DNA of 64,000 nt, from assembly GCA_044351265.1 (NCBI GenBank), contig JBILGC010000003.1, positions 22,886 to 86,885 on the forward strand, written 5' to 3'. The notes under the pieces were generated by a model, which made no database searches, was not told where the DNA came from, and saw only the letters and a list, made by a program, of their open reading frames with translations. Origin of the DNA: Bacteroidia bacterium. Lineage in GTDB: Bacteria > Bacteroidota > Bacteroidia > UKL13-3. How positions within the stretch are numbered: the first letter of the stretch is position 1; each line of letters opens with the position of its first letter. The translations under genes were made by a program, and so were the position numbers. Positions 8,495 through 50,037 of the stretch are shown piece after piece.

Positions 8495-8505
8495 TGGCTT
8501 TTTTT
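8476..8505 (+). terminator. Rho-independent terminator (hairpin gccatc-ggat-gatggc followed by a T7 run) overlapping the stop codon of the aminotransferase
   Basis: Sequence aaaaaagccatcggatgatggcttttttt, seen directly. Located between convergent genes. Confidence 0.5.
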
Positions 8506-8524
8506 ATTTCGACTTGAATAATAA

Positions 8525-8989: not shown

Positions 8990-9008
8990 ATAGATAATTG
9001 ATTTTTAA

Positions 9009-9626: not shown

Positions 9627-9639
9627 CTGTTCATTATGA

Positions 9640-11265: not shown

Positions 11266-11306
11266 TTCAATTAAACCTTTCATACCTTTGCTTATCATAA
11301 AAAGCC

Positions 11307-13299: not shown

Positions 13300-13330
13300 T
13301 TATAATCTTTAAATAGCTTTATTTGAACCT

Positions 13331-16429: not shown

Positions 16430-16501
16430 CATAAAAGCAGTTAAGATATTGGCGTGAATATGGTTTAATATTCATATAATTGTTGGGATATTACCCTCTA
16501 T

Positions 16502-36067: not shown

Positions 36068-38085
36068 AAGTAGGTTCTACCCATAGACACAGCAGCATTA
36101 TTGCCTGCCGGTGCATGCGGACCTGCAGCTAAACTAGCTTGAACATTGAGCACATCCAACATATTTTTTACACCTGTTTGAATGGTAAGTTTTTGATTAA
36201 AGAAACTTCTGCTTGCAGTAAGATCAAGCAAAGTAAATCCATCAATAAAACCCGTTTTAACTTCGCCATCTGTAATATTGTATTGAAACAGCTGCATAAG
36301 TGAATTATATTTACAGAACAATGCAACCTGCATTTTAATTTTTTTAATGAGATACCTTGCATTGCATCGATACTCATGATTTGTAAAATATTTGTCAGTA
36401 GCAATCATATTGGTAAATGTGTTGTTGATACCGATTAGCGCATAGCCCAAGCTAACAGCATAATCAGGTGCTACATATTCTGCCGTAATATTAGTCCCGA
36501 CATTTCTGAAATCGCTAATGGATGTGTAGCATGCCTCCAAGGTATTGCTGTTTAACAGAACTAAATCTATTTTATTAAATATTTCATTGTAAAATAGTGC
36601 AACATCAACTTTTAGCATGTTTTCTTCTAACAGATGCTGGTGGGTTAAACTTAGCTGATAGTTATTTTGGGTTTCGGCCTTCAAATCCGGATTGCCCTTT
36701 ATATTGTGAGCAGGGTCAGTAAAGTTTAAGTAAAGCTCTTTAAGTGTTGGCGATCGGAAACCCCTGCCGAAAGATGCACGAAGGCTTAAATCCGAGCGAA
36801 TATCCCACTTGAGATTTAACGATGGAATAATTGGGGCCTGATACTTACTGTTATAGGTTAAGCGCATTCCTGGCCTTAGAAGTAGCCGCTGGAAAAACTT
36901 TAATTCCATGCTTGCAAAACCACTTATATCGGTTAAAGATTGTGTACCATTGGAAATACGATTGCCGGTAAACTGATCATAGGTTGTTTCATAGCCCAAC
37001 TGATAATTATATTTAGCCTTATCCTTATTTCGGGAGAATGTTCCCCTGCTCATAACATTCTTAAAGTAACCTGTATCCTGCAGGTGGGCCTCAGGCACCA
37101 GATTTTCCTGTAGTGTAACAAGATCTTTTCTGGTGGTATTTACAATTCGTCTGTAATGGTTATATGCAGCCACAATATGCAGGGAGTGGTTGCTAAAAAG
37201 TTTTTGCTCATAAAATGCAGCGGTTGATATCCTTCTTGTATAATAGTACTGATCTATTCCGTAAGCGCTGTAAGGCGTAATGGTGCCGGAATCCCTATTG
37301 GTTACTTTCTCATCAAAAATACTTCCGGTTATCCTGAGCGATGAATGGGTAAACTTTTTAGAAATGCTCAAATCTCCAAAATACTGTGTGCGTGGTTTCC
37401 AAAGTTTTACCCTCGAATCCTCATTTTGAGCAAAGCCGTCAAAAAAATTTCTTGATCCATTTACCTCCAATCTCCATTCTCTGTTGAGATAGATACTTGT
37501 AAACAAATTGAGATTATACTGGCCGATATTCTCATAATAGGCTTTGGCCCCCAGCTGGTCATGAGGCTTGTATGATTTTTTTGTAATCAGATTAATGACA
37601 CCGCCCAATGCATCTGTTCCAAAACTCACACTCATGGGGCCCTCTACTACTTCTATTCGTTCAATATTGTTTAAGTTAAGTTGATTGAGGTCGATAAAAT
37701 TCCCTTCGCGCCCCACAACAGGCACTCCATCAATCATAATTTTTATGTTCTGACCATTAATGCCTTGAATACTCAAACCGCTTCCCAATGCAGGGTCGTT
37801 GTTAATGCGCACATTCAGTTCATTGTTCAATAAATCACGAAGGTTGACGGCACCTTGCTGCTCAATTCTTTTTTGCCCGATTACTTTTACCCTGTAAACC
37901 GATTGCGAAAGAGAGTTTTCTGCATATTGCCCCGTTATCACTACATCTTCCAGTTGCTTACTTTTTGAGGCATCTGGCTGTTGTGCCATTAAAGGTACAA
38001 AAACAACAAACACCATGCAAAACATGGTGAGTGTCATTTTTAACCTATATGAAAAATTATATTTCAACCGGAATTTACTCCACAA
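36028..38085 (-). CDS. TonB-dependent outer-membrane receptor (HmuR-like heme/hemoprotein receptor candidate)
   Basis: Signal peptide. TonB box/plug DVVITGQYAENS...RIEVVEGPMSVSFGTDALGGVINLITKK. 685 aa with a 22-strand barrel length. Ends in an aromatic-containing terminal strand. Confidence 0.85.
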   Translation of the reverse strand: MWSKFRLKYNFSYRLKMTLTMFCMVFVVFVPLMAQQPDASKSKQLEDVVITGQYAENSLSQSVYRVKVIGQKRIEQQGAVNLRDLLNNELNVRINNDPALGSGLSIQGINGQNIKIMIDGVPVVGREGNFIDLNQLNLNNIERIEVVEGPMSVSFGTDALGGVINLITKKSYKPHDQLGAKAYYENIGQYNLNLFTSIYLNREWRLEVNGSRNFFDGFAQNEDSRVKLWKPRTQYFGDLSISKKFTHSSLRITGSIFDEKVTNRDSGTITPYSAYGIDQYYYTRRISTAAFYEQKLFSNHSLHIVAAYNHYRRIVNTTRKDLVTLQENLVPEAHLQDTGYFKNVMSRGTFSRNKDKAKYNYQLGYETTYDQFTGNRISNGTQSLTDISGFASMELKFFQRLLLRPGMRLTYNSKYQAPIIPSLNLKWDIRSDLSLRASFGRGFRSPTLKELYLNFTDPAHNIKGNPDLKAETQNNYQLSLTHQHLLEENMLKVDVALFYNEIFNKIDLVLLNSNTLEACYTSISDFRNVGTNITAEYVAPDYAVSLGYALIGINNTFTNMIATDKYFTNHEYRCNARYLIKKIKMQVALFCKYNSLMQLFQYNITDGEVKTGFIDGFTLLDLTASRSFFNQKLTIQTGVKNMLDVLNVQASLAAGPHAPAGNNAAVSMGRTYFCAIQYQLSIDRE

Positions 38086-39367
38086 TAAATTTACCTGCTA
38101 CCATACCGTTAGGAGTTTCTACATTATAGAAATAAATTCCTTTAGCCATAGAGTCGGTATTAATCTTTGTACGAAAACCACCATCAGCAGATTCCATATT
38201 TGTTTGATAAATGCTTTTCCCGGTTAAATCCACAACCGCAAGACGTGCTTGCTTAGCTTCTGTAAATACCTCTATGGTTAAATCGGTTTTAGCTGGGTTT
38301 GGATATGCGAGTGTACGTGCCACGTTACTGTTTACTTCAGATACCGAAGTAATATCTATTGACGATTTATTGAATACAATCACATTTGGATTTGCATCAA
38401 ATCTGTCAAATAAGATTCTGTATATCAAGTTACCTTTTTTAATGAAGAAGGCCATCGTATCAACAATAGGCCAAGAAGGAGTAGGTGGCCCCATAGGTGA
38501 AACTTTCCAGTCCCATCCAATTGTATTGATTATCGATGAATATGCTTTAACCATGCTGCGGTTTACGGTATCCCTTTTAACACCTAACACACGAGCTGCC
38601 ATCACATTTGCAGGATTAATCAACACACCTGTTACATTGTAAAATGTATCGGCTCCCAGGTAATTTACCTTCGCATGGTAGCGGGCAAATAATATATCCC
38701 AGTTGGCTATTGGTGGTTCACGATCAACCAAGGTCTTATTCAAGATATTATAGTATGCAAACATTTTGCCGGTGAAGGCTGCTTTATTAAAACTCACATA
38801 ATTGCTATCTGTATTATTTAAATTGGCAAATGTAAAGTTCCATGTTGTATCAAGAGTAAGCTGATTAATCATGAGTTTTTTATAAACGGTATTTGCGCCA
38901 TTTCTTATGGCAAAAAGATAAATGACTTTGCCATCAATGTGGTGCGTATTCATGCTGTAATCTCCCCAGCCAAAATCAAACCCATTGGTTCTTCCCTGAT
39001 TTAGCGCTCCAACATCCCATGATGTATCACTGTCTCTAACCACGGTCCAATTTCTCCAGTTGGTTGTATCAAAATTATTCCATGAAGCAGGTGCTTGTGT
39101 TGATTTGTATACGGTAACACCACGAGCCATATTTATGCGAACGGTAGCTGCCAATAATACATTCATTGGCGGCTGGGCATTTCTAACCGAGAATGCAATA
39201 TGCCAGTTGGTGTTTCTTGCTGTATCCTTGGCACCGGTGGTGATATTATAATACACATCCAACGGATAATTAGTTGAACCACCGCCCATGGAAACTGAAT
39301 CGGTGGTTTGGGCTTGTAATTGGCTAATGATAAAGGCGCCAATAAGAAGAAGTAATAGTTTTTTCAT
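38075..39367 (-). CDS. HmuY-like protein carrying a T9SS C-terminal sorting domain
   Basis: Signal peptide MKKLLLLLIGAFIISQLQAQ. NTNWHIAFSVRN resembles the HmuY WDLAF motif. The C-terminus TLAYPNPAKTDLTIEVF...GIYFYNVETPNGMVAGKFIVE is a T9SS CTD. Its stop overlaps the start of the TBDR gene. Confidence 0.5.
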   Translation of the reverse strand: MKKLLLLLIGAFIISQLQAQTTDSVSMGGGSTNYPLDVYYNITTGAKDTARNTNWHIAFSVRNAQPPMNVLLAATVRINMARGVTVYKSTQAPASWNNFDTTNWRNWTVVRDSDTSWDVGALNQGRTNGFDFGWGDYSMNTHHIDGKVIYLFAIRNGANTVYKKLMINQLTLDTTWNFTFANLNNTDSNYVSFNKAAFTGKMFAYYNILNKTLVDREPPIANWDILFARYHAKVNYLGADTFYNVTGVLINPANVMAARVLGVKRDTVNRSMVKAYSSIINTIGWDWKVSPMGPPTPSWPIVDTMAFFIKKGNLIYRILFDRFDANPNVIVFNKSSIDITSVSEVNSNVARTLAYPNPAKTDLTIEVFTEAKQARLAVVDLTGKSIYQTNMESADGGFRTKINTDSMAKGIYFYNVETPNGMVAGKFIVE

Positions 39368-39606
39368 TGAATGAATTAGGTGTAATGAGTAATGTTAATT
39401 TTGTGGGTGCAAATAAAATCAATTTCATCTGCTGGCATCCTTATTACACATCCATTTTACCCTTTTATGACATAACTGGCAGCACCATATTTTAAGGCTG
39501 ATTTTTATCATATTTTGCGGGTTAACGGACAAAACATATATTCGGCAACAGAAAGCCCGCTATTTCAGCCAAAGAGGGGCGTTTAACCTGATTTAAACAA
39601 AAACAT

Positions 39607-42051
39607 ATGAATACAATTTTGCAAAAAAAATGGTTTCCTCACCTGGCGGCCATCATCATTGCGCTTACTGCCATTATCATTTATTTCAATCCGCTCCTTT
39701 CCGGAAAAGCACTTAAACAACATGATGTGCAGCAATGGCAAGCAACCTATAATGAAATAAACCAATTTCAGAAAGCAACAGGAGAGCGAACCTTTTGGAC
39801 CAATGCTGTTTTTAGCGGCATGCCCACCTATCTCATCGGGCCTTCCTACAGAAAGAACTTTACATCTACGGTAAGTGCCTATATCAGCAAGGTTTTACCT
39901 AACCCGGTTGATACCATGTTTTTGCTGTTTATCTGCTTTTATATTTTATTGCTCACCTTCGAGGTTTCGCCCTGGCTGGCCATTGCAGGAAGCTTGGCAT
40001 TTATGTTTTCCTCGTTTAACCTTATAAATATAGATGCAGGACACGTTGGAAAAGGTAATGCCATTGCTTTTATGCCGCTTGTGCTGGCTGGCATCAACTA
40101 CACTTTACGAAAAGACAAATGGATAGGTGCACTGCTTACCGGCATTGCACTTTCCCTACAACTGGCTGCAGGCCACCTTCAGATTACTTATTACTTGATG
40201 ATGCTTATTGGCGTCTGGATGCTGGCAGAAATATTTATTGCTGCTAAAAACAAGCAGTTTGCTCAACTGCTGGTATGCGGAGCCTTTATGGCCGTTGCCG
40301 CTTGCATTGGTGTGGCTACAGGGGCCAATAATCTGATGCCTACAGAGGAATACGGCAAATACAGTATACGCGGCAAATCAGAACTCACCAAAACATCCTC
40401 CGGTGAAGGCAATGCCGCCATAGCTTCATCAGGCCTTGATAAAGACTACGCCCTGCAATGGAGTAATGGTGTTGCTGAGCCTTTTACCTTACTTATACCT
40501 AATTTTTATGGTGGATCAAGCTCAGCTGAGCTTAGCACCAGCTCAGAAACATATAAAATTTTAAAACAAAACGGGGTACCCAATGCCAAGCAAATTATTC
40601 AGGGCATGCCTGTTTATTGGGGCGACCAGCCTTTTACAGCAGGTCCCATTTACTATGGTGCCATTGTTTGTTTTCTTTTTGTGCTGGGGCTTTTTGTAAT
40701 TAAAGGTCCTGAGAAATGGTGGATTCTGGGCATCTCAACTCTCGCTATTCTCCTTTCTATGGGCAAAAATTTTATGTCGCTAACCGATTTATTCTTTTAC
40801 AACTTTCCGCTATATAATAAATTTCGCTCTGTAACTTTTATTCTATGTATCACCCAAACAACATTCCCGCTGCTGGCCCTGCTGGCCGTGCGTGATATAC
40901 TTTCAGGAAAAATAAAGGCAACAGATTTAAAGAAACCCTTATTGTATAGTTTCTATATTGTAGGAGGCCTATGCGCAGTTTTTGCATTTGTACCTAATAT
41001 TTTTCTTAGTTTCATCTCGCCTGTTGATGATCGCCTACCAGAATGGCTCAGACAGTCGATTGTAGATGACCGTGAATCATTATTAAAATCAGATGCACTG
41101 CGCTCTTTATTGTTTATTACGGCATCATTTGCTCTAATCTGGTTTTATTTAAAAGGCAAATTTTCAGAAACTATTTTTATCGTTACTCTTACTGCACTTG
41201 TTGTAATTGATTTGTGGGGAGTTGATAAACGTTATCTGAATGATTCAGATTTTGAAACCAAAAAGAAAAACCTGGAAGCTTCCTTTCCCAAATCGCAAGC
41301 CGATGAAATGATTTTGCAGGATAAAGACATCCACTACCGTGTTTACAATACAACACAACGTTTGGATCAGGATGCCCTTACCTCTTACTGGCATAAATCC
41401 ATTGGCGGATATCATGGTGCTAAAATGCGCAGATATCAGGAGTTAATTGAATTTCATTTGTCGCGTGGCAATATGCAAACCTTCAATATGCTTAATGTTA
41501 AATACTTTATTGTGGGCGACAGTGCCAATAATATGTTTGGTCAGCAAAACCCTGACGCCAATGGAAATGCATGGTTTGTAAATAAAATTCTTACTGTTGC
41601 CAACGCTGATGCAGAAATAGATTCACTAACCAATCTCAATACCAAAACTACGGCAGTTGTTGATACACGCTTTGCCGATATGCTTAAAGGTTTTACGCCA
41701 ACGGCAGACTCTGCAGCATCGATTAAACTATTAAGTTATGCTCCTAATAAACTGGTTTATGAATCGAACAGCAGTGCGGATAACTTGGCTGTATTTTCTG
41801 AGATTTATTATGATAAAGGATGGAAAGCAAGCATTGACGGACAATCGACAGATTATTTGCGTTGCAATTATGTATTAAGGGGTATGAAGATTCCTGCAGG
41901 TAAGCACCGTATAGAATTTGTTTTTGAACCGGAGGTAGTTACTACCGGAGAGCGCATTTCATTATTTGCCTCTATTGCTTTGTATGGCGGAATTGTGGTG
42001 GCCGGTGGCCTATCCTTTTTCAGTAGAAGAAAAACAGAACCAAAGAGCTGA
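39607..42051 (+). CDS. YfhO-family polytopic membrane protein (GT-C-like glycosyltransferase/flippase family)
   Basis: 814 aa. About 13 N-terminal TM helices, a soluble domain of about 330 aa and a final C-terminal TM helix. The N-terminal pattern ...PLLSGKALKQHDVQQWQATYNEINQF...FWTNAVFSGMP fits YfhO-family proteins. Confidence 0.65.
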   Translation: MNTILQKKWFPHLAAIIIALTAIIIYFNPLLSGKALKQHDVQQWQATYNEINQFQKATGERTFWTNAVFSGMPTYLIGPSYRKNFTSTVSAYISKVLPNPVDTMFLLFICFYILLLTFEVSPWLAIAGSLAFMFSSFNLINIDAGHVGKGNAIAFMPLVLAGINYTLRKDKWIGALLTGIALSLQLAAGHLQITYYLMMLIGVWMLAEIFIAAKNKQFAQLLVCGAFMAVAACIGVATGANNLMPTEEYGKYSIRGKSELTKTSSGEGNAAIASSGLDKDYALQWSNGVAEPFTLLIPNFYGGSSSAELSTSSETYKILKQNGVPNAKQIIQGMPVYWGDQPFTAGPIYYGAIVCFLFVLGLFVIKGPEKWWILGISTLAILLSMGKNFMSLTDLFFYNFPLYNKFRSVTFILCITQTTFPLLALLAVRDILSGKIKATDLKKPLLYSFYIVGGLCAVFAFVPNIFLSFISPVDDRLPEWLRQSIVDDRESLLKSDALRSLLFITASFALIWFYLKGKFSETIFIVTLTALVVIDLWGVDKRYLNDSDFETKKKNLEASFPKSQADEMILQDKDIHYRVYNTTQRLDQDALTSYWHKSIGGYHGAKMRRYQELIEFHLSRGNMQTFNMLNVKYFIVGDSANNMFGQQNPDANGNAWFVNKILTVANADAEIDSLTNLNTKTTAVVDTRFADMLKGFTPTADSAASIKLLSYAPNKLVYESNSSADNLAVFSEIYYDKGWKASIDGQSTDYLRCNYVLRGMKIPAGKHRIEFVFEPEVVTTGERISLFASIALYGGIVVAGGLSFFSRRKTEPKS

Positions 42052-42057
42052 TAAATT

Positions 42058-43668
42058 ATGCTGGAAGTATTGATGCTCATGCTCTATGCCACTTTCCTGG
42101 GCTATGCTGCAGGGGTATCCACCATACTTTCTATTATGAAATTAACTGGCGAGCATGAGCCCTGGCATCTGCGCTCACCTCTTGTGGTTATTATAGGATT
42201 TGCCGTTATCTCATGTATTATTTCCATTCTACATTTTTTGATTCCGCTGGATTGGCACTCTCATGTTATAATCTGGATCTTCATAAGCGCTGCCCTTAAC
42301 GCTTGCAGCAAACAGTTAGTAAGCGTATTCCCTGATTTGATTTACCGCATACGAAAAAGCATATGGTTTAATTTAATCCTGCTGCTTATTGCCATAGTAA
42401 GTGTTTGCATAAAACCCGGTAGTGGTGATATTGCCGATTATCATCTGCAAGCAATCAAGTGGGCTGAGTATTATAAATTACTTCTGGGTATTGGTAATTT
42501 TAACCGACCCTTGGTTAATAACAACTGGTGGTTTAATCTACAAGCATTTTTCGGATGCCACAATGCTGGTTTTCATTCGGTGTATGTATTAAATGGAATT
42601 TGGTACATCCTCCTCATGATTTATTTTACACGCAATCTGAGTGAGGCTAGGCAACGCTTGTTTCGTGTTCCAATCATTTTGTTTTTACTGCTTATGGTTA
42701 AAACTGCCTTTATCGGCAGCGTAACTCCGGATATTGTCATTACAGGGATTATTTTCCTGTGTTTTGATCTGTATTTGGAAAGTAAGCAAAACAACGCATC
42801 TAAAGGCTTTTACAGCATCATTATTTCCTTACTCATATTCTGGGGAATTACCATTAAAGCCACCGCCTTGCTGCTGCTATTTTTAAGTTTATTGTTGTTG
42901 TGGTTTCTTCGTGGCAACAAACAATTTCGGATTTATTTTTTAATGATAATTGCGCTCGGGTGCATTTGGCTCTTTCCCTGGCTAGCTGGCAATGTGGTAC
43001 GTGGCGGTTATTTGTTGTATCCATTTAATCAAATTGATTGGTTCCAGGTTGACTGGAAAGTTCCTGCCTCCTATTTTGAATACGATAAAATTGTTTTAAA
43101 AGGATGGGGGCGCATACCACATTCAGATATATATGCAACGGCAACCCTAACCTATAATCAATGGGTACCCGCTTGGTTTATCAACCTTGATATGTTTAAT
43201 AAAGGACTGGTACTGGCATTTATTGCATCGGTAATAAGCTTGCTGATTACTTCCTTCAAACAAAAATCATTTCCCATGCAAGCATTGGCTGCTCTGGTAG
43301 GTTGGTTCATGTTGTTTAACAGCGGCCCTCACATGCGTTTTATGTACGGATATATGGTGGTGATAATGGGCATAGCCTTATCACAATACAATTTGCCTTC
43401 ATTTGCTTGGGCACGAAAAGCTTATATGGGTATCTTATGTTTGCTACTGATTTGGTTAAGCGTAACCCACTCGGATAAATTATCCTTTTTTCATACACAG
43501 CCTTATCCGCAAAATAATCTAACTCAAAGCAGCATCAGTGGTTTTCCTGTTTATGTGGTTCAATCAAACAACCTATGCTGGGATCAATTTCCATGCACCT
43601 ATTATATCGCAGATAAAATTATGCTGCGCACACCTGATATCAATGATGGGTTTAAGGTTAAAGAGTAA
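42058..43668 (+). CDS. Polytopic membrane protein, putative GT-C-fold glycosyltransferase/polymerase-like (uncharacterised)
   Basis: 536 aa with at least 12 TM helices. An Asp-containing first-loop motif PGSGDIADYHLQAIKW and a large periplasmic-loop-like region near the C-terminus. 6 bp after yfhO. Confidence 0.35.
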   Translation: MLEVLMLMLYATFLGYAAGVSTILSIMKLTGEHEPWHLRSPLVVIIGFAVISCIISILHFLIPLDWHSHVIIWIFISAALNACSKQLVSVFPDLIYRIRKSIWFNLILLLIAIVSVCIKPGSGDIADYHLQAIKWAEYYKLLLGIGNFNRPLVNNNWWFNLQAFFGCHNAGFHSVYVLNGIWYILLMIYFTRNLSEARQRLFRVPIILFLLLMVKTAFIGSVTPDIVITGIIFLCFDLYLESKQNNASKGFYSIIISLLIFWGITIKATALLLLFLSLLLLWFLRGNKQFRIYFLMIIALGCIWLFPWLAGNVVRGGYLLYPFNQIDWFQVDWKVPASYFEYDKIVLKGWGRIPHSDIYATATLTYNQWVPAWFINLDMFNKGLVLAFIASVISLLITSFKQKSFPMQALAALVGWFMLFNSGPHMRFMYGYMVVIMGIALSQYNLPSFAWARKAYMGILCLLLIWLSVTHSDKLSFFHTQPYPQNNLTQSSISGFPVYVVQSNNLCWDQFPCTYYIADKIMLRTPDINDGFKVKE

Positions 43669-43697
43669 TGTATAAAAGCGCTCTCTGCTCTTTACAG

Positions 43698-44342
43698 TTA
43701 TTTTTCACCTATTAATAAAAACTGCTTACCCATAAAAGGCCATACGATTGGCATATTTAAATAAGTGCGCACCAAGAATGCATTTACCGGCAACTTGCTT
43801 TTAAATGATAAAGGCAAAAACTTTGGATGCACCTCAATAGGATTAAACCCCGCACCATATAAATGCTCTGCTACGCCACCTTCGGAAAGCAGTACCGTAT
43901 GATCTGCAAAATCAAAATAATACTTATAAGTATATTTAAAGTTAGGCCCCATAATGGCGATACGGCCCCCGGGTTTGATGGCCTTATACATGCGCTCCAG
44001 AAAAAATGCAACCTGCTCTTGGCTGTGCAAGTGCTCTAAAAAATTGGAGATAAAAACCCCATCAAAATAATTTTCAGGCAAATTTACTTCTAAGTTATTT
44101 CCGGTAATAACTTTAATACCTTGATACGCCATCTTAGGTGTAATTTCACTCATATCAACTGCCCAGCGTTCCTCAGAAGGAATCTGATTGATGAACTCAC
44201 AATCACCTGCAGCAGGATCGAGCATGCGCTCTGGCTTACCCAATTTGTGGTAAATAAACGTGGCAATCTCCTTCCAAGTCATGAGTTTTTTCTCACGGTC
44301 AACATCCTTAAAGCGGTATTCGTATATGCGGTCGTAGTTCAT
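43698..44342 (-). CDS. Class I SAM-dependent methyltransferase (MT type 11-like)
   Basis: Motif I MLDPAAGDCEFI, post-I acidic VDMSE, motif III YFDGVFISNFLEHL. 214 aa. Confidence 0.7.
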   Translation of the reverse strand: MNYDRIYEYRFKDVDREKKLMTWKEIATFIYHKLGKPERMLDPAAGDCEFINQIPSEERWAVDMSEITPKMAYQGIKVITGNNLEVNLPENYFDGVFISNFLEHLHSQEQVAFFLERMYKAIKPGGRIAIMGPNFKYTYKYYFDFADHTVLLSEGGVAEHLYGAGFNPIEVHPKFLPLSFKSKLPVNAFLVRTYLNMPIVWPFMGKQFLLIGEK

Positions 44343-44354
44343 AGAAATTAAATT

Positions 44355-45083
44355 TTATCGTTGCCTGTTCTTTGGCAAATCATAATGGTCTGAAAATATT
44401 TCAAGATAAACTTTGCGCATGTCTTTTATGGTGCGCATGATGTTTTTAAAGCTGGTTGAAGCACCCTGACCAAATTTGCGCGGAAAAGTTTGAATGCCAA
44501 CCTCACCCACTCTATAACCCTTTAGCATGGTTTTAATGGTGAGTTCAGCACCTATAAACGGGCTATCGGTAATTAAACTGATATCGGCTAAAATATCTTT
44601 TCTCACCATGCGTAATCCGGTACTGATATCACGGAAATTTGTTCTGAATATCCAACGCAACACTCGGTTGTAGATATATGAAATGAAAATGCGTTTGTTA
44701 GAATATATTTTTTTGTATCGGAAGCTAATAATCAAATCGTAGTAATCCTTTAACTTAATGAGCTTTTTAAATTCCTCCATATCATACTCATCATCTCCAT
44801 CTGTAAAACAGATATAATCATATTGGGCAGCACCCAAACCTGATTTCACTGCAGCACCATAACCGAGATTTTTGGGATGATGCATGACCCTTACGTTCGA
44901 ATAAAGATTAGCTAATTCATCGGCAATTTTTCCTGAATTATCAGGGCTGCAATCATTGATGATAATAACCTCAAACATGCCTGCACACTCCTTTCCAAAA
45001 GCAAGTGCCTTTTCCGTAACAGTTTTCACTGTTCGCTCGTCATTATAAACCGGAAAGAATATGCTAATATTAGGCTTGTTCAT
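44355..45083 (-). CDS. Family 2 glycosyltransferase, soluble polyprenyl-phosphate glycosyl synthase type (Dpm1/GtrB catalytic domain without TM tail)
   Basis: ISIFFPVYNDERTVKTV...VIIINDCSPDNSGKIA...YICFTDGDDEYD (DxD). 242 aa with no hydrophobic helices. Confidence 0.8.
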   Translation of the reverse strand: MNKPNISIFFPVYNDERTVKTVTEKALAFGKECAGMFEVIIINDCSPDNSGKIADELANLYSNVRVMHHPKNLGYGAAVKSGLGAAQYDYICFTDGDDEYDMEEFKKLIKLKDYYDLIISFRYKKIYSNKRIFISYIYNRVLRWIFRTNFRDISTGLRMVRKDILADISLITDSPFIGAELTIKTMLKGYRVGEVGIQTFPRKFGQGASTSFKNIMRTIKDMRKVYLEIFSDHYDLPKNRQR

Positions 45084-45099
45084 AGCGGGCGAAAAGTAA

Positions 45100-45843
45100 T
45101 TAAAATTTCAGTTTTTTAAATATAAACCACGGCAAATATTGCAACACCCATGATAATGGCAACCAAAAAACCGGTACATATGCCAATCCTGTATCTTTAT
45201 TTCTGTTCTTAATCAGGACTTGCGCAACGCGCTCAGGCTTTGCAACAGGAAACAATAATTTCTTACCTCTGCTTAAAGCTGTTTCCATGTAACCTGCCCT
45301 ATATACCTGAATACGCATAGGGCCAGTTGCAAAATGATGCCGTAAACCTAAAGCCATATATTCCAATGCGATTTTTGAAGCACTGTAGGCAATATTGGCT
45401 CCGCGTGGCCTAATTGCTGCAATAGAAGATATGACAGTGATATTGGATGCCTTATTTTGAAGATGCATACAGCAGGCACGCATAATGTAACTAATGCCTA
45501 AACAGTTTACCTGCATAAGCTTTGGCAGATAATCAACCGAATCGGAGCCTTTATCCCGATCATCAATAATACCTGCAGTAATATAAACTTGCGTGCAATT
45601 GGGCATCAAATCAAAACATTGTTGCATAAAAATTGCTGCCGAATCTGCATCGAGTGCAGCCAGATCAATCGGTTTCACCGCAGCATTTATCTGATATCTA
45701 ACTTGCAAATGAACAGACAAAGCCTTCAAGTCTTCTTCGCTGCGTGAACTGATGATTACATCATGACCTGCTTTGGCCAATTGCTCTGCAACGGCTCTTC
45801 CTAAGCCTGAACTTGCTCCAATAATGAGTGCTGCTTGTTTCAT
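45100..45843 (-). CDS. Short-chain dehydrogenase/reductase, DprE2-like (decaprenylphospho-2'-keto-sugar reductase homologue)
   Basis: TGxxxGxG ALIIGASSGLGRAVA, a YxxxK catalytic dyad (YSASK) and the C-terminal hydrophobic tail VPVFWLPLSWVLQYLPWFIFKKLKF. The tail resembles my recollection of the M. tuberculosis DprE2 C-terminus (...[22 protein letters not shown]). The start codon overlaps the stop of the upstream DprE1-like gene. Confidence 0.65.
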   Translation of the reverse strand: MKQAALIIGASSGLGRAVAEQLAKAGHDVIISSRSEEDLKALSVHLQVRYQINAAVKPIDLAALDADSAAIFMQQCFDLMPNCTQVYITAGIIDDRDKGSDSVDYLPKLMQVNCLGISYIMRACCMHLQNKASNITVISSIAAIRPRGANIAYSASKIALEYMALGLRHHFATGPMRIQVYRAGYMETALSRGKKLLFPVAKPERVAQVLIKNRNKDTGLAYVPVFWLPLSWVLQYLPWFIFKKLKF

Positions 45844-47159
45844 TATAATTCTAATCTTGTTCTTAATTCACTACCAAATCGCTTTTGCACATCGTGCTTA
45901 TTAAGTGCTTGCTTAAATTGCTCATATTGCGGAAAACATTGTTTTACCAGTTGCGCACCTGCTCTGCTGTCTTTACTTAAATTAATAATGCCACCATATT
46001 TTAAAGTAATTTTATCCAATGCCTCAAAAAAAGAAATCGATTTTTTGTTATTAGGCACATCAATGGTAACACAGAGTCCGCTTCCTGAAAAACTGATATT
46101 ATGAGGCTCCCCTTTAAATATTTTTAATGAGCCTAATGCAATTGGCATATTCATTTGAGCTATGATTTTCTGAATTTCAGCAACAGCTGCCGACCATTTA
46201 TCTAAATCAAATATCACTTGGTATTCTCTGAATCCTTTTTTACCAAAAAAATAGTAGTACACCTCTTTGCTATAAATAGGGAATGAAGCCTGCACCAAAT
46301 CAATCACACGATGTCGAGGTTTCACCGCATCCATTAACTCATAAACCCTGTTCATGGCTTTAATGGTAAAGTTATTATACAATACAGGTATATTTTTAAA
46401 CCGATTGAGCTTATTGATATAAGGTTTAGGATTCAATATCTTTTTTTCTGATAAATGATTTTCAAGGTACACAATGCCTTTTCCAAAATGCTTACCCCTT
46501 AGGTTAAAATTATTCCAAGCATAAATATAATCATACTCTTCGGCCTTCTCGGTCATCAGCGCAACGGCTATATTCATATTCGGAACTTTAACGGCCTCAA
46601 CTAACATAAGGTTGCCGCTTATTTTCTTTAATACAATGCTTGCCGAAACAATAATACCCGTTAAGCCCATGCCACCAACAGTTAAATTAAACAAGGCTGA
46701 CCCCGGTAAGCATGTTTGCAAGCCATAATCCGGATGAAACAGCGTAATTGAATGTACCCAATTAATGAACGTGCCAACCTTATATTGAGATTTGCCATGC
46801 ACATTAAAACCAATGCAGCCCCCAACGGTAATGGCAGGATAACCCGGCAAAACAGGAAGTACCCAGTTTTTAGAAATCAGAAAATTGTTAAGCTCCCCTG
46901 TTGCTATTCCTGCCTCAACGGTAATTATACCTTTCTCCTCATCAAATGCCAATATGCGATTAAACTGCCTCATATCCACAGATAAGCAATAATTACCTGA
47001 AGCCGCTGCGCTGTAAGATAAGCCTGCACCACGAGGAATAATTGGCCTGAGCAATGGCAGGTTCAATAAATCATGGTAACGCTCTGGTTGAAAGAGGTCA
47101 CTGCTGGTAGCAATTGTTTTATCAAAACTTTGAATGGGTTGAGACATTTTATCCATCAA
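45843..47159 (-). CDS. FAD-binding oxidase, DprE1-like (decaprenylphosphoryl-beta-D-ribose 2'-oxidase family)
   Basis: PCMH-type FAD domain IIPRGAGLSYSAAASGN, VLPVLPGYPAITVGGCIGFNVHGK, TVGGMGLTGIIVSASIVLKKI and a C-terminal ...FGSELRTRLEL. These align motif-for-motif with what I recall of M. tuberculosis DprE1 ([57 protein letters not shown]; ...ASDMARRLELL). 438 aa. Confidence 0.75.
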   Translation of the reverse strand: MMDKMSQPIQSFDKTIATSSDLFQPERYHDLLNLPLLRPIIPRGAGLSYSAAASGNYCLSVDMRQFNRILAFDEEKGIITVEAGIATGELNNFLISKNWVLPVLPGYPAITVGGCIGFNVHGKSQYKVGTFINWVHSITLFHPDYGLQTCLPGSALFNLTVGGMGLTGIIVSASIVLKKISGNLMLVEAVKVPNMNIAVALMTEKAEEYDYIYAWNNFNLRGKHFGKGIVYLENHLSEKKILNPKPYINKLNRFKNIPVLYNNFTIKAMNRVYELMDAVKPRHRVIDLVQASFPIYSKEVYYYFFGKKGFREYQVIFDLDKWSAAVAEIQKIIAQMNMPIALGSLKIFKGEPHNISFSGSGLCVTIDVPNNKKSISFFEALDKITLKYGGIINLSKDSRAGAQLVKQCFPQYEQFKQALNKHDVQKRFGSELRTRLEL

Positions 47160-47288
47160 TATTAAGGCATTTGCACGTAGTTATAAAATCAAGCATCAGA
47201 CCTGCATTGTACTATAATTAAATACGCAGATTATTTGGTGGCCTAAATGCAAAATAATTCTATTTTTACACCCGCTTAAGCATAATCA

Positions 47289-48230
47289 ATGGCTGAAAAG
47301 ATTTTAATTATCGGTGCCAACGGACAAATTGGTACCGAGCTGAGTGCAGAACTCAGAAAAATTTTTGGAACCGACAACGTAGTTACCTCCGATATCAAAG
47401 CCCCGCAGCAAGCTGAAGGGCCTTATGAGTTGCTGGATGTAATGGACAGAGAAAGCATGTATGCCATTATTAAAAAACATGGCATTACGCAGGTATATTT
47501 ATTGGCTGCATTGCTTTCGGCCACGGCAGAGAAAAATCCTAAGCTGGGTTGGGACCTAAACATGCAGGGATTGTTTAATGGTTTAGATGCTGCCAAAGAA
47601 GGACTGATAAAAAAGTTGTACTGGCCAAGCTCTATTGCTGTTTTTGGACCCACAACCCCGCGCATAAATACTCCTCAATATACAGTAATGGAGCCCAATA
47701 CCATTTATGGAATAAGCAAACAGGCAGGCGAGCGTTTTTGCGAGTATTATCACCAGAAGTATGGTGTAGATGTGCGTAGTTTGCGCTACCCCGGATTAAT
47801 TGGCTACAAATCGGCACCAGGCGGTGGAACCACAGATTATGCCGTTCATATTTATCATGAAGCATTAAAAAATAAAAGCTACGAATGCTTTTTAAAAGCA
47901 GGCACAGTTTTGCCTATGATGTATATGCCTGATGCCTTACATGCAACCATTGAACTGATGGAAGCACCTGCAGAAAAGGTGAAGATACGCAGCAGTTACA
48001 ATATTGCAGGTGTAAGTTTTGATCCGGAAGAAATTGCAGCATCCATTCGCAAACACATGCCTGAATTTACCATTAGCTATAAGCCTGATTTCAGGCAAGC
48101 CATTGCCGATAGCTGGCCTGCCAGTATTGATGATACTCAAGCACGCGATCACTGGGGCTGGAATCCGCAATATGAACTGGATAGCATGACCAAGGACATG
48201 CTACACCATTTGGGTAGCCAAGCTTCATAA
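47289..48230 (+). CDS. NAD-dependent epimerase/dehydratase family protein, most similar to GalE-like L-threonine 3-dehydrogenase
   Basis: ILIIGANGQIGTEL Rossmann fold. YGISK (YxxxK) and a conserved C-terminal block RSLRYPGLIGYKSAPGGGTTDYAV...SWPASIDD typical of short SDR-type TDH enzymes. 313 aa. Confidence 0.55.
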   Translation: MAEKILIIGANGQIGTELSAELRKIFGTDNVVTSDIKAPQQAEGPYELLDVMDRESMYAIIKKHGITQVYLLAALLSATAEKNPKLGWDLNMQGLFNGLDAAKEGLIKKLYWPSSIAVFGPTTPRINTPQYTVMEPNTIYGISKQAGERFCEYYHQKYGVDVRSLRYPGLIGYKSAPGGGTTDYAVHIYHEALKNKSYECFLKAGTVLPMMYMPDALHATIELMEAPAEKVKIRSSYNIAGVSFDPEEIAASIRKHMPEFTISYKPDFRQAIADSWPASIDDTQARDHWGWNPQYELDSMTKDMLHHLGSQAS

Positions 48231-48260
48231 ATGCATTAAATCACTTTCTAAAATTTCACG

Positions 48261-48293
48261 TAAAAAAAGCTGCTCAACTGAGCAGCTTTTTTT
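48261..48293. terminator. Bidirectional rho-independent terminator between convergent genes
   Basis: aaaaaaagctgctc-aact-gagcagcttttttt: a perfect 8-bp GC-containing stem, a 4-nt loop, and an A-run on one side with a T-run on the other. Confidence 0.7.
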
Positions 48294-48318
48294 ACTAATT
48301 ATCAAGCTAGCATCATTA

Positions 48319-50037
48319 CTAATCAACTTTTAAATTAAGATAGCTAGGAATAAGATGGGATGGGATGGCAAATCCAACACCCTCAGTTGCAAAACCAACA
48401 AGCTTAGAAGTAACCACACCATGCAAATTACCTGCTTTATCAAAAAGTGCACCACCACTATTTCCGGGATTAATACTCATATTTACCTGGAGCATACTTC
48501 CACTATTTACCTTGCGCTCATTAGAAAGAATTCCTAAGCTGACTGATTGGCCTAGCTCAAGGGATTTAGGAGTTCCCACTGCATAAATCTCAGACAATTT
48601 TTTATAGCTTTTTTCACTTTTCAATTCAAAAACAACATCGAAATTTTTCTCAACCTTAAGTAAAGCTAAATCTCTTGACTTGTTATATCTAACTAACTTA
48701 ACAGGAATTTCTTCGCCATCGGACAGCACAATTTTAATATCGTCCGGTCTGCCTGCATAATCTCCAGCAATTACGTGGTAGTTTGTTAAAATATAACCAT
48801 CATGGGTTATCGCAAATCCAGAACCATGTCCTTTATCACTGCGCTTAATTGAAACTGCAGCAGCGGTTGCATCACCAATCTCTTTGACCACTTTGGTAGG
48901 CTTTTTCAAAGTTATTATCTGATCATTGATAGAATAATTGGAATCAACTGCAAGATGTTTTTGAAATAACTCACTCTTTAATAAGGTAAAGTAAGAAAAG
49001 TCAACAGCATCTGCATACATTTGATAGCTCTTATCATTTGCAAGGAATATGCTGGGAAAATTACCAGAGTAGCTCCAAAAATTTTGTGAATCAAGTTTCT
49101 CTCCATAGCTATTCATTACATACCATGTAATATTTAATTTGGTTTTATAGAATGAAGCAAAATTTGTTTCAATTTCATATAAATAAGATTTTTTAATAAC
49201 ACCTTCAAGATAAATAGTGTTGTTATTGTCCTGAAAAACCTTGTTAACCGTATCAATATAACCGGTGGTTTTCAAGGTATTGAATACCATTTCCGAGAAT
49301 TTGGTATCGTCATAATTAACCTCATTTTTATCTGAATCTGGCACAAGTTTTTCTTTAGCTGTTTTCTTCCTCTTAGCAGCTTTAGCAGCTTCTTTTTGTT
49401 CTCTTTTGCGCTCATCTGAAAAAAACTCAAGTTCTTTAGCTTCAATATCCTTTACAATATTTGTATGAGTTGTGTATTCTACATCATCAATATATCTAAT
49501 ATCTTTACTCTTATCATCAATCTTAAGTTTTATTGCCTCCAGCTTCACATATTTTTGGTTATTGCTTCTTTTCTCAAGTAGGTTACCAGATTTCAATGGT
49601 ATATTTTTACTATATGGAAAAAACTTATTGTCCTCTATATACATATCTACAAGACCTGGATACACAAAGAAACCAAAACTCATTAAAACCAAAAATGGCC
49701 TTGCCACCGCTCGCTTAACAGGCACAATTACATCATAGGCATCTTTGTGTTCAGGTGTTCTAACAATTACCTGCTGCGCTCCATTTTTCTCTACTTTGGC
49801 ACTAAACGATTTACCTTTACCAACTAACTCGTTTCGTAAAAAAACTTTTGCATCTTTATTGTCAGTTTGGAAAGTAACAGTTTGTTTTCTTGGAATTAGA
49901 ATCCAACTGCAAGAACCTAAAATACTTACTAAAAAGAGTAATGCCGCAATTCCAACAATAGAATGCAATTTGAGAATGTTATGCGGATTGAGAAAATGAA
50001 AGATATTGGAAAGAGTGCGGATGTGTGGTGATTTCAT
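48319..50037 (-). CDS. Lipoprotein with a C-terminal trypsin-like serine peptidase domain (S1C/Trypsin_2) and an N-terminal domain of unknown function
   Basis: Lipoprotein signal ...LVSILGSCS. C-terminal GHGSGFAITHDGYILTNYHVIAGD (His), ...SRDLALLKV (Asp) and NPGNSGGALFDKAGNLHGVVTS (GNSGG Ser). A K/E-rich segment ERKREQKEAAKAAKRKKTAKEK lies between the domains. Confidence 0.75.
   Translation of the reverse strand: MKSPHIRTLSNIFHFLNPHNILKLHSIVGIAALLFLVSILGSCSWILIPRKQTVTFQTDNKDAKVFLRNELVGKGKSFSAKVEKNGAQQVIVRTPEHKDAYDVIVPVKRAVARPFLVLMSFGFFVYPGLVDMYIEDNKFFPYSKNIPLKSGNLLEKRSNNQKYVKLEAIKLKIDDKSKDIRYIDDVEYTTHTNIVKDIEAKELEFFSDERKREQKEAAKAAKRKKTAKEKLVPDSDKNEVNYDDTKFSEMVFNTLKTTGYIDTVNKVFQDNNNTIYLEGVIKKSYLYEIETNFASFYKTKLNITWYVMNSYGEKLDSQNFWSYSGNFPSIFLANDKSYQMYADAVDFSYFTLLKSELFQKHLAVDSNYSINDQIITLKKPTKVVKEIGDATAAAVSIKRSDKGHGSGFAITHDGYILTNYHVIAGDYAGRPDDIKIVLSDGEEIPVKLVRYNKSRDLALLKVEKNFDVVFELKSEKSYKKLSEIYAVGTPKSLELGQSVSLGILSNERKVNSGSMLQVNMSINPGNSGGALFDKAGNLHGVVTSKLVGFATEGVGFAIPSHLIPSYLNLKVD

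Follow-up and report, generated by a model that had tools for sequence, protein, structure and literature searches.

Six genes at the locus

The locus under study lies within a stretch of DNA of 64 kb, here referred to as the window. The ORF listing of the window contained six ORFs exactly where an earlier sequence-only reading had placed them:

39607-42051, plus strand: YfhO-family gene, polytopic membrane protein of 814 aa
42058-43668, plus strand: DUF8201 / LIC_10190-family gene, polytopic membrane protein of 536 aa
43698-44342, minus strand: class I SAM methyltransferase gene, 214 aa
44355-45083, minus strand: GT2 gene, 242 aa
45100-45843, minus strand: DprE2-like SDR gene, 247 aa
45843-47159, minus strand: DprE1-like FAD oxidase gene, 438 aa

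The minus-strand genes were tightly packed. The FAD and SDR genes overlapped by 1 nt, 16 bp separated SDR from GT2, and 12 bp separated GT2 from the methyltransferase. On the plus strand the YfhO gene was followed by the DUF8201 gene after 6 bp, and the convergent ends of both groups were 29 bp apart. The packing, the spacing and the two converging membrane proteins had all been described in the sequence-only reading and agree with the ORF listing. The domain content was as claimed as well (FAD_binding_4/DprE1 model, adh_short, Glycos_transf_2, Methyltransf_11, YfhO and a polytopic protein of 536 aa). The oxidase ORF started with TTG directly followed by ATG; relatives of the oxidase are 434-437 aa long, and translation probably begins at this ATG, one codon further on. 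A neighbouring 313-aa gene with an "epimerase-fold" was rejected as a member of the pathway; it encodes an unrelated L-threonine dehydrogenase.

The six-gene layout was kept in four relatives (loci L001, L002, L004 and L005) with FAD-protein identities of 82-86%, and it survived the insertion of an extra gene in a relative. Additionally, the FAD-SDR-GT2 core was co-conserved across phyla; the oxidase clade was found next to the GT2 across ~80 genomes, a sample biased by its retrieval with peptide patterns from the GT2-linked clade, in which genes were called from raw ORFs and shadow ORFs occur in high-GC loci. Since the layout recurs in four relatives and the core across phyla, the arrangement is more than a chance adjacency.

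The DprE1-like oxidase and its SDR partner

The 438-aa protein matched Pfam FAD_binding_4 with 74.6 bits and the NCBIfam DprE1 model NF053785 with 226 bits; the latter match spanned positions 37-449 of the 449 in the profile. With the models of other VAO families, among them sugar-lactone oxidase and GlcD, it reached at most 41 bits, in the N-terminal FAD domain only. Residues 38-438 aligned with the DprE1 structures 4aut and 4fdn in the PDB (E 5e-34 to 5e-33). These scores bear out the proposed placement in the DprE1 family rather than with GlcD or other VAO enzymes. However, 226 bits fall short of the NCBI equivalog cut-off for DprE1 of 500 bits, and the identity to M. tuberculosis DprE1 was ~25%.

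The equivalents of M. tuberculosis Y60, H132, K134, W230, Q336, K367 and K418 were kept in the oxidase. Conservation of the catalytic Lys and His residues and of the Cys387 position had been singled out for checking: the equivalents of Lys418, His132 and Lys134 were present in 45-46 of 46 clade members, and the C387 equivalent was Thr365. In a neighbour-joining tree, from which nine FAD ORFs with unusual lengths (probably in part mis-called or fragmented) were excluded, the GT2-linked oxidases formed a clade of their own that split from classical DprE1 in 100/100 bootstraps. The alphaproteobacterial enzymes linked to a UbiA-type phosphoribosyltransferase (PPPRS; HAD+UbiA) clustered with mycobacterial DprE1, to which they were 37% identical compared to 25% for the GT2-linked enzymes. 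Changes specific for the GT2-linked clade were Q334E, V365S (V365S/T), N385C, Y415N and S228Y; of these, Q334E and V365S/T were the invariant pocket changes. Q334, V365 and Y415 were the same in mycobacterial and alphaproteobacterial DprE1 and were replaced throughout the GT2-linked clade. Because of the sub-cut-off score and the distinct clade with its pocket substitutions, the protein is, as judged by sequence, a genuine DprE1-family member which is DprE1-like but not DprE1. The low score and the invariant pocket changes suggest that it may differ from DprE1 in its substrate and in the position it oxidises.

The 247-aa SDR matched Pfam adh_short (93 bits) and, over its full length, the NCBIfam DprE2 model (80.8 bits), which ranked third after two unnamed SDR models. 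Its translation contains YSASK, which fits the YxxxK motif, and the nucleotide motif GASSGLG. Residues 3-245 aligned end to end with residues 10-252 of the DprE2 structure 21gq_C, but 11-beta-HSD1 scored equally well. In 72 of 79 fetched loci, classical DprE1 loci among them, an SDR from the same BLAST cluster was present, usually directly downstream of the oxidase gene. Since both genes overlap by 1 nt, the SDR is probably translationally coupled to the oxidase. The sequence does not separate this protein from generic SDRs, and the DprE2 label rests on the pairing.

Glycosyltransferase, methyltransferase and membrane proteins

The 242-aa GT2 matched Pfam Glycos_transf_2 with 99 bits, and weak full-length matches to the models of dolichyl-P hexose transferase, AglJ, ArnC and PpgS were found. 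When its AF2 model (pLDDT 79) was compared to the PDB by Foldseek, the best 25 matches were all ArnC, DPMS or GtrB (E 2.5e-14, TMq up to 0.75), which are polyprenyl-phosphate glycosyltransferases. The DGDDEYD motif was invariant across lineages at identities of 63-75%, and a scan for hydrophobic segments found none. The model-based prediction is a polyprenyl-phosphate glycosyltransferase that makes a lipid-linked sugar. A match to PPPRS was found neither in the 64-kb window nor within 10 kb in any of ~50 GT2-linked loci, whereas 11 classical loci have one. The suggestion that a GT2 takes the place of a UbiA-type enzyme is in agreement with these results.

In 44 of 70 scorable loci the GT2 adjoined the oxidase/SDR pair, and no other partner of the pair was as conserved or as tightly linked. 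Nine of 19 well-flanked GT2 homologues lacked the pair. As these pair-less homologues also adjoin GT-C-like or polytopic proteins (DUF2079, MptB-like, LPG_synthase_TM), the data fit an epimerase that was added on to a basic system of synthase and GT-C protein.

The methyltransferase matched Pfam Methyltransf_11/12/25 and gave generic matches only in the PDB. Its cluster was found in 26 of 83 sources (82 fetched loci and the window) from several phyla, and it adjoined GT2 homologues without the pair as well. Among GT2-linked loci, 27 were without it ("SG--") versus 15 with it ("SGM-"). It is an accessory travelling with the GT2.

The 814-aa protein matched Pfam YfhO with 56.4 bits (cut-off 28.5), restricted to residues 704-785; the N-terminal 698 aa scanned alone gave no match. 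It contained 11 hydrophobic segments. All 25 tested relatives (36-43% identity) matched YfhO, the family is large (1781 representatives at E<=1e-30), and a search for a solved structure of this protein found none. We consider it a candidate extracytoplasmic GT-C transferase. The 536-aa DUF8201 protein, with ~10 hydrophobic segments and a predicted GT-C fold near ALG12, ArnT and AftA, is a second candidate according to this model. Both genes are linked to the module by adjacency on the opposite strand.

The YfhO gene adjoined the module only in the window and the four relatives with the six-gene layout, and other lineages carried other polytopic proteins; DUF8201 was likewise linked in the window lineage only. 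The GT-C fold predicted for the 536-aa protein agrees with the idea of a YfhO or GT-C-like transferase; the link to the module is confined to this lineage. Polytopic proteins (at least 7 hydrophobic segments and at least 350 aa) were found within 4 kb of the oxidase-SDR-GT2 triad in 41 of 50 loci, at a density of 1.84 per 10 kb near the triad versus 0.24 per 10 kb further off. The window operon contained no polytopic transferase besides YfhO/DUF8201, and no flippase (GtrA) was found in the 64-kb window.

More than 1300 homologous proteins from many phyla were found, and the module was also present in Pelagibacteraceae, Acidimicrobiia, Bdellovibrionota, Planctomycetota and CPR bacteria. The GT2-fed module is widespread in many phyla, and the view that such homologues are rare or special to Bacteroidota had to be abandoned. 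Both tests by which the sequence-only reading could fail, namely the family placement of the 438-aa protein and the co-conservation of FAD, SDR and GT2 genes, were run and neither refuted it; its overall interpretation is supported.

Proposed pathway and alternative explanations

Based on the in silico data we propose, with a probability of about 0.6, a GtrB-type three-component extracytoplasmic glycosylation pathway with an added epimerisation on the lipid. At the cytoplasmic face, the soluble GT2 would charge polyprenyl (undecaprenyl) phosphate with the sugar of a nucleotide-sugar. The DprE1-like flavoprotein would oxidise one hydroxyl of this sugar to a ketone, at C2 by analogy with DprE1, and the coupled SDR would use NAD(P)H to reduce the ketone from the opposite face. 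This would yield an epimer that the cell may be unable to supply as a nucleotide-activated donor. The methyltransferase would probably methylate the sugar ahead of export, a flippase would take the lipid-linked sugar across the membrane, and the DUF8201 GT-C-fold protein and/or the YfhO protein would transfer it to an envelope acceptor (LPS, another glycan or a protein). The basis is the family and fold of oxidase, GT2 and DUF8201, the catalytic residues, the oxidase-SDR-GT2 linkage and the lack of a PRPP-dependent synthase; we infer the chemical steps, which sugar is used, which position is oxidised, what is methylated and which acceptor receives the sugar.

Mycobacterial DprE1/DprE2 form the decaprenyl-P-ribose 2'-epimerase, which works with the UbiA-type DPPRS Rv3806c, the GtrA-like Rv3789 and Aft/Emb GT-C enzymes. 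In both systems a VAO-type flavoprotein contains the DprE1-specific substrate domain and the catalytic residues Lys, His and Lys, its gene lies next to that of an SDR partner, and membrane transferases of GT-C fold are encoded in the vicinity; the logic of a lipid-linked sugar at the cytoplasmic face is shared as well. The locus differs in the divergent oxidase (identity, clade, score), in the pocket (Q334E, V365S, N385C, Y415N, and Thr for Cys387), in a GT2 with a presumed nucleotide-sugar instead of a PRPP-dependent UbiA enzyme, and in the absence of GtrA from the locus.

Three-component pentofuranose side-chain systems have been described for Citrobacter youngae O1/O2, with epimerases as diversifying accessories (Kelly et al. 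PNAS 2024, PMC11127046); its authors state that they are not aware of further epimerases in systems for side-chain glycosylation. Here as in these systems and in the Araf modification of P. aeruginosa group IV pilin, there would be a lipid-monophosphate sugar donor and an extracytoplasmic GT-C transferase; optional cytoplasmic epimerases diversifying the sugar, with DprE1/E2 homologues for Araf, are a further likeness to the pentofuranose systems. However, PRPP enters those via PPPRS (UbiA, often HAD-fused) and the entry enzyme here is a Dpm1/GtrB/ArnC-type GT2; they use a MATE or SMR flippase, and none was identified here. A GT2 combined with YfhO has a precedent in CsbB/YfhO (PMC5836110). 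In GtrA/GtrB/GtrC and CsbB/YfhO (GtlA/GtlB, PgfS/PgfM) undecaprenyl-P-hexose is the product of a GT2, and a YfhO or other GT-C enzyme transfers it outside the cytoplasm to O-antigen, teichoic acids or streptococcal proteins; the GT2 model match and the YfhO-family protein resemble this. Unlike the locus studied here, these systems have no redox/epimerisation step on the lipid and no methyltransferase, and their GT2 has C-terminal TM helices. In the ArnC/ArnD/ArnT pathway for lipid A aminoarabinose, the sugar is likewise modified on undecaprenyl phosphate between GT2 and GT-C, there by deformylation (ArnD), here by the proposed oxidation/reduction. By structure, ArnC matched the GT2 best and ArnT ranked second for DUF8201, but the GT2 showed no sequence-level orthology to ArnC (model 51 bits, cut-off 529).

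The pair could also act on undecaprenyl-P-ribofuranose, which a UbiA-type synthase from another site in the genome would make from PRPP, and convert it into undecaprenyl-P-arabinofuranose, with the adjacent GT2 serving another purpose. This conversion on the lipid takes place in mycobacteria, for P. aeruginosa group IV pilin and in Azorhizobium, and it is exactly what the sole characterised family members do. The catalytic residues are kept, the visible part of the genome is 64 kb, so that PPPRS could lie further away, and DprE1/E2 homologues occur in Araf-adding Gram-negative systems (Kelly et al., PMC11127046). We nevertheless regard this as very unlikely, since all PPPRS-linked enzymes belong to the other clade, GT2-linked loci lack a nearby PPPRS, the GT2 is the closest partner of the pair and three residues of the classical pocket are replaced throughout the clade. 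Somewhat less improbable, though still unlikely, is that no epimer is the end product: the keto-sugar on the lipid would be an intermediate for e.g. C- or O-methylation, or the SDR would restore the original configuration or act at another carbon, giving a methylated or otherwise modified sugar. The co-conserved methyltransferase in a subset of loci, B12-radical-SAM enzymes beside the pair in other loci and the invariant Q334E, which hints at changed chemistry or substrate, point in this direction. Against it, the methyltransferase tracks the GT2 and not the oxidase, and most GT2-linked loci are without it, therefore oxidase and SDR alone must yield a useful product; moreover, in DprE1/DprE2 the tight coupling of an oxidase with a reductase is established as the mark of net epimerisation.

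Finally, the minus-strand operon and the YfhO/DUF8201 pair might be unrelated neighbours in a variable glycan island, in which case a transferase from another locus would use the lipid-linked sugar and YfhO/DUF8201 would draw on another donor. Their lineage-restricted linkage and the very numerous YfhO relatives would fit, and two of three DUF8201 homologues examined had no GT2 nearby. Locus L164 has a homologue of DUF8201 close to the same tdh gene, paired there with a different GT2 and NDP-sugar enzymes, which suggests module swapping at this site. We consider this possible but doubtful: most GT2-linked loci have a polytopic protein close by and the window operon offers no other, the layout is kept among relatives even with an extra gene inserted, and the DUF8201 fold is that of enzymes using polyprenyl-monophosphate sugars.

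We found no paper describing a DprE1/DprE2-like pair together with a GT2. The preferred reading, a GT2-fed epimerisation on the lipid, would represent an uncharacterised, yet widespread version of DprE1/DprE2 chemistry.

The locus and its surroundings

The analyzed locus comprised six genes. A new ORF list of the window from 33 to 54 kb reproduced exactly the coordinates of the sequence-only reading.

Genes of the locus, with positions in the window
39607-42051, plus strand, YfhO-family protein, 814 aa (YfhO protein)
42058-43668, plus strand, DUF8201/LIC_10190 protein, 536 aa (DUF8201 protein)
43698-44342, minus strand, methyltransferase, 214 aa
44355-45083, minus strand, glycosyltransferase of family GT2, 242 aa (GT2)
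45100-45843, minus strand, DprE2-like short-chain dehydrogenase/reductase, 247 aa (SDR)
45843-47159, minus strand, DprE1-like FAD oxidase, 438 aa (oxidase)

The minus-strand genes were closely spaced, with a 1-nt overlap between the oxidase and SDR genes followed by gaps of 16 bp and 12 bp. The plus-strand YfhO and DUF8201 genes converge on them, leaving 29 bp between the gene ends. The GC content was flat along the locus (~0.39-0.40) and thus gave no sign of recent foreign origin. Since the oxidase ORF opens with TTG-ATG and its relatives are 434-437 aa in size, the true start is probably located one to a few codons inside the called ORF. A scan for sigma-70 promoters and terminators (window 39000-48500), whose coverage does not extend to Bacteroidota promoters, gave counts as expected from shuffled sequence (33 versus 32.4 and 8 versus 9.5, respectively).

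The divergent gene next to the oxidase (47289-48230, plus strand), a 313-aa 'NAD-dependent epimerase/dehydratase', was considered as a pathway member and rejected, since it is a short-chain L-threonine 3-dehydrogenase (PDB 2yy7, E 1.5e-136) with a housekeeping function. Upstream of the YfhO gene (35015-39367, minus strand), three genes code for a 350-aa HmuY-like protein, a 685-aa TonB-dependent receptor and a 430-aa protein carrying a type IX secretion C-terminal sorting domain. ORFs overlap in their neighbourhood, and the cluster is syntenic in close relatives. It looks like a haem/porphyrin uptake system unrelated to the glycosylation module.

The oxidase family and its two clades

The oxidase carried the Pfam domain FAD_binding_4 and matched the DprE1 model NF053785 end to end (226.2 bits; residues 37-438 against profile positions 37-449 of 449). 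Nine DprE1 entries led the PDB matches (residues 38-438, E 5e-34 to 3e-31), followed by LctD at 3e-6. Other flavoprotein families, such as sugar-lactone oxidase and GlcD, reached at most 41 bits and matched only the FAD domain within the N-terminal ~140 residues. A placement among GlcD or alditol oxidases, named in the sequence-only reading as a refutation, thus did not occur. Because the score is below the equivalog cut-off of 500 bits, the protein, which is ~25% identical to M. tuberculosis DprE1, is best regarded on sequence grounds as DprE1-like rather than as DprE1.

More than 1300 relatives of the oxidase were found by protein search, and a scan of one genome per species yielded 80 loci. 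The Bacteroidota loci belong to Chitinophagaceae, Sphingobacteriales, Saprospiraceae, Flavobacteriales and Bacteroidales. Additional loci were present in Pelagibacteraceae, other Alpha-, Beta- and Gammaproteobacteria, Acidimicrobiia, Bdellovibrionota, Planctomycetota, Polyangia, Verrucomicrobiota and CPR bacteria. The closest ones originate from freshwater metagenome-assembled genomes (L003, Bacteroidia, 95% identity; L004, Sphingobacteriales, 86%). After clustering of all ORFs, taken as raw calls and ignoring the antisense shadow clusters c4, c8, c15, c49 and c50, the oxidase occurred in 79 loci or sources, the SDR in 72, the GT2 in 52 and the methyltransferase in 26.

A neighbour-joining tree labelled by gene context split the DprE1 family in two. 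One group joins the DprE1 of M. tuberculosis and M. smegmatis with alphaproteobacterial enzymes, the latter encoded next to a HAD-UbiA fusion (Pfam UbiA and HAD), GtrA and a 708-aa polytopic protein. This fusion is a PRPP-dependent polyprenyl-phosphoribose synthase (PPPRS) like Citrobacter ORF15, and the loci are classical pentofuranose systems. The second group contains the window oxidase and every GT2-linked locus; it is the larger one in a set retrieved with peptide patterns from this very clade, so that the relative abundance of both clades is not representative. The separation was found in 100 of 100 bootstraps of this distance-based tree (capped/corrected distances). M. tuberculosis DprE1 shares 37% identity with the PPPRS-linked alphaproteobacterial enzymes, whereas its identity to the GT2-linked clade is 25%.

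Two types of loci deserve mention here. Ten loci of Pelagibacteraceae (L045-L050, L053, L057, L058 and L064) showed the gene order GT2-oxidase-SDR, with a protein of ~600 aa and 12 hydrophobic segments located upstream on the opposite strand; this abundant marine lineage of SAR11 type probably also produces a lipid-linked, epimerised sugar of this kind. On the classical side, the loci of Thalassobaculum and relatives (L071, L075-L079 and L081, ~8300-16900 of each) carried the HAD-UbiA PPPRS, DprE1, DprE2, GtrA and the 708-aa polytopic protein, and additionally an NAD epimerase-fold protein (309 aa) and an amine-oxidase-like flavoprotein (431 aa). These two extra redox enzymes suggest that the lipid-linked pentofuranose is modified beyond arabinose.

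For the active site, 46 members of the GT2-linked clade were aligned and anchored on the M. tuberculosis numbering. Y60, H132, K134, W230, Q336, K367 and K418 were retained in both clades, corresponding to Y49, H121, K123, W215, Q314, K346 and K396 of the window oxidase. The equivalents of Lys418, His132, Lys134, Tyr60, Gln336 and Lys367, which we take to be the catalytic and FAD-site residues of DprE1, were conserved in 44-46 of the 46 members. The Lys and His residues pointed out in the sequence-only reading are therefore kept. The benzothiazinone-target position Cys387, raised there as well, is occupied by Thr, Ala or Ser in the clade and by Thr365 in the window oxidase. Several pocket positions that are identical in the mycobacterial and alphaproteobacterial enzymes were replaced:

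Pocket substitutions in the GT2-linked clade (M. tuberculosis numbering)
Q334 to E, 46/46
V365 to S/T, 46/46
S228 to Y, 43/46
Y415 to N/S, 41/46
N385 to C, 37/46

Such clade-wide substitutions suggest a different sugar. The catalytic machinery appears to be kept within an altered sugar pocket, which would fit a substrate other than ribofuranose.

The GT2 core and the membrane proteins

The AlphaFold model of the GT2 had a pLDDT of 79, with weak regions at residues 123-126 and 195-208. Its top 25 Foldseek matches in the PDB were all ArnC, DPMS (Pyrococcus) or GtrB (E 2.5e-14 to 1.6e-10; 227-239 aligned columns), which are the three polyprenyl-phosphate glycosyltransferases with characterised structures. 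The protein thus has the GT-A fold and DxD motif of these enzymes, which are its closest structures over the whole catalytic domain, and the motif DGDDEYD is invariant in its family. No hydrophobic segment was found in the 242 aa, and the C-terminal TM helices that anchor such enzymes in the membrane were absent. Since TM-less polyprenyl-phosphate glycosyltransferases exist, e.g. human DPM1, this is compatible with membership in the group.

Across lineages the GT2 was 63-75% identical, versus 40-50% for the oxidase and 30-46% for the SDR. The high conservation suggests one fixed nucleotide-sugar/lipid reaction that may feed a variable downstream chemistry. The methyltransferase (214 aa) is of a generic class I SAM type; predicted to be soluble and to lack a signal peptide, it would have to act before export.

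A GT2-centred scan of metagenome contigs yielded 19 loci flanked by 2.3 kb or more on each side. The oxidase was present in 10 of them (9 also with SDR) and neither gene in the other 9 (L087, L097, L102, L112, L138, L147, L151, L153 and L156), whose GT2 is 57-68% identical to that of the window. The latter GT2s directly adjoin polytopic proteins (DUF2079, MptB-like, LPG_synthase_TM, or unassigned proteins of 536-664 aa with 7-10 hydrophobic segments), and often the same methyltransferase is carried. A basic GT2 system without the oxidase/SDR pair thus does occur. Within the genome set a polytopic protein, defined by at least 350 aa and at least 7 hydrophobic segments, was located within 4 kb of the oxidase-SDR-GT2 triad in 41 of 50 GT2-linked loci, frequently starting within 60 bp; the density was 1.84 per 10 kb near the triad versus 0.24 per 10 kb further out. 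Based on these neighbourhoods, the general architecture is a GT2, with or without methyltransferase, and a variable GT-C-like protein, to which the pair is a frequent accessory.

Of the two membrane proteins in the window, the 814-aa protein matched Pfam YfhO (PF09586) with 56.4 bits (gathering threshold 28.5), confined to residues 704-785 (profile positions 754-835 of 835). The N-terminal 698 residues matched nothing in Pfam when scanned by themselves, and nothing in the PDB by sequence or profile. The protein belongs to a very large family of ~800 aa and 36-48% identity, and all 25 sampled members matched YfhO. The predicted structure of the DUF8201 protein is polytopic and superposable on GT-C enzymes, which assigns a predicted GT-C fold to this uncharacterised family. 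The invariant D124 and the residues Y128, H129, Q131 and E137 cluster in a loop/short-helix region of the model.

Only in the window lineage (L001, L002, L004 and L005) are both proteins encoded next to the module. In these four loci an additional 203-aa gene, similar to F420_oxidored/NADP-oxidoreductases, is present between the methyltransferase and DUF8201 genes (10509-11120 in L001). It is cleanly absent from the window, where 29 bp are found at the corresponding site (43669-43697). Its product might supply a cofactor or carry out another redox reaction on the sugar.

Of three remoter DUF8201 homologues, two had no GT2 nearby. In the third case (L164), the neighbours are a short Dpm1-like GT2 of a different kind (20% identity), a pair of NDP-sugar dehydratase/epimerase genes and a further polytopic protein (548 aa), which showed no similarity to the YfhO protein. 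This locus is also near a 76%-identical copy of the threonine dehydrogenase gene (tdh) that flanks the window locus. The arrangement suggests that tdh borders a variable island for glycan modification, where DUF8201 stays in place while the module making the donor is swapped, and it supports DUF8201 as a user of the lipid-linked sugar made by a GT2.

Proposed pathway and its significance

From the family and fold assignments, residue conservation and gene linkage found in silico we infer a GtrB-type three-component glycosylation with an added epimerisation on the lipid, at a probability of roughly 60%. At the cytoplasmic face, the GT2 would load undecaprenyl phosphate with a sugar taken from a nucleotide-sugar. 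The flavoprotein would then oxidise one hydroxyl, at C2 by analogy with DprE1, and the SDR would reduce the ketone to the epimer. After modification by the methyltransferase and export of the donor by a flippase, DUF8201 and/or YfhO would pass the sugar on to an acceptor in the envelope. The neighbouring NDP-sugar genes allowed no inference on the sugar, since the extended-SDR cluster c11 was heterogeneous (Gmd-, GalE- and UXS-like) and without consistent position.

Instead, a classical conversion of ribose to arabinose could take place with a PPPRS encoded at a distance, as the visible part of the source genome is 64 kb. When a PPPRS profile was derived from 11 classical loci, these scored 660-783 bits and L067, on the same side of the tree, 155 bits. 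Neither the 64-kb window nor any GT2-linked locus gave a match, which bears out the earlier claim of a GT2 rather than a UbiA-type partner. With the altered sugar pocket in addition, we consider the classical route very improbable. The keto-sugar might also lead to something other than an epimer, which seems quite improbable. The presumed reductase (247 aa), a classical SDR, reached 80.8 bits with the DprE2 model NF053786 (cut-off 250), third after two unnamed SDR models. A profile of 27 partner SDRs matched the DprE2 structure 21gq_C end to end with 105.1 bits and 11-beta-HSD1 with 105.7 bits; given this tie, its identification as the reductase partner rests on gene linkage and not on sequence. 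An SDR of the same BLAST cluster accompanied the oxidase in 72 of 79 loci, PPPRS-linked ones included. The C-terminal tail of the SDR (window 45100-45170, minus strand; residues ~222-247) is hydrophobic and aromatic (YVPVFWLPLSWVLQYLPWFIFKKLKF), with P224, W227 and P238 invariant across the clade, and could be a membrane-association or partner-binding element.

That YfhO and DUF8201 are not the cognate transferases is rather unlikely, and would be compatible with the rest of the proposed pathway. Their adjacency to the module is restricted to one lineage and, as the arrangement in L164 also allows, may not reflect strict functional coupling. Of the three components, the window holds the synthase (GT2) and the GT-C candidates, and a GtrA flippase profile from the classical loci had no match there.

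The components and the logic of the epimerising glycosylation pathway, i.e. DprE1/DprE2 epimerisation and three-component glycosylation of GtrB/YfhO type, are already known. The combination is not described and defines a deep and widespread clade; our full-text literature searches found no description of a DprE1/DprE2-type pair with a GT2. In PPPRS-based pentofuranose systems auxiliary epimerases diversify the donor, and the authors state that they are unaware of any further epimerase in systems for side-chain glycosylation (Kelly et al., PMC11127046). The GT2-linked module follows the same accessory-epimerase logic, but the entry in those systems is PPPRS-based.

We see about an even chance that the GT2-linked clade is a widespread class of on-lipid epimerases whose substrate is a polyprenyl-phosphate sugar of nucleotide-sugar origin (hexose, 6-deoxyhexose, pentopyranose or similar) rather than ribofuranose, and whose product is an envelope sugar lacking a nucleotide-activated donor. 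To our knowledge, PRPP-derived ribofuranose is the only substrate for which epimerisation on the lipid by DprE1/DprE2 has been described; the known cases are the mycobacterial arabinan, a major drug target, and a few Gram-negative Araf systems. If the proposal is true, the strategy of epimerising on the carrier lipid would extend beyond pentofuranose/PRPP systems, and bacteria would apply the same redox trick to sugars derived from nucleotide-sugars. Relatives are publicly annotated as 'decaprenylphospho-beta-D-ribofuranose 2-oxidase' or 'FAD-binding oxidoreductase', and the former, KEGG-style name would then probably be wrong on the substrate. With three or four genes the module is compact and might lend itself to in vitro reconstitution. 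The clade is present in freshwater Bacteroidota as well as in environmental lineages of very high abundance (Pelagibacteraceae/SAR11, Acidimicrobiia, Bdellovibrionota and CPR). If the proposal is true, abundant bacteria of fresh water and the sea would carry novel epimeric sugars, possibly methylated, on their envelopes.
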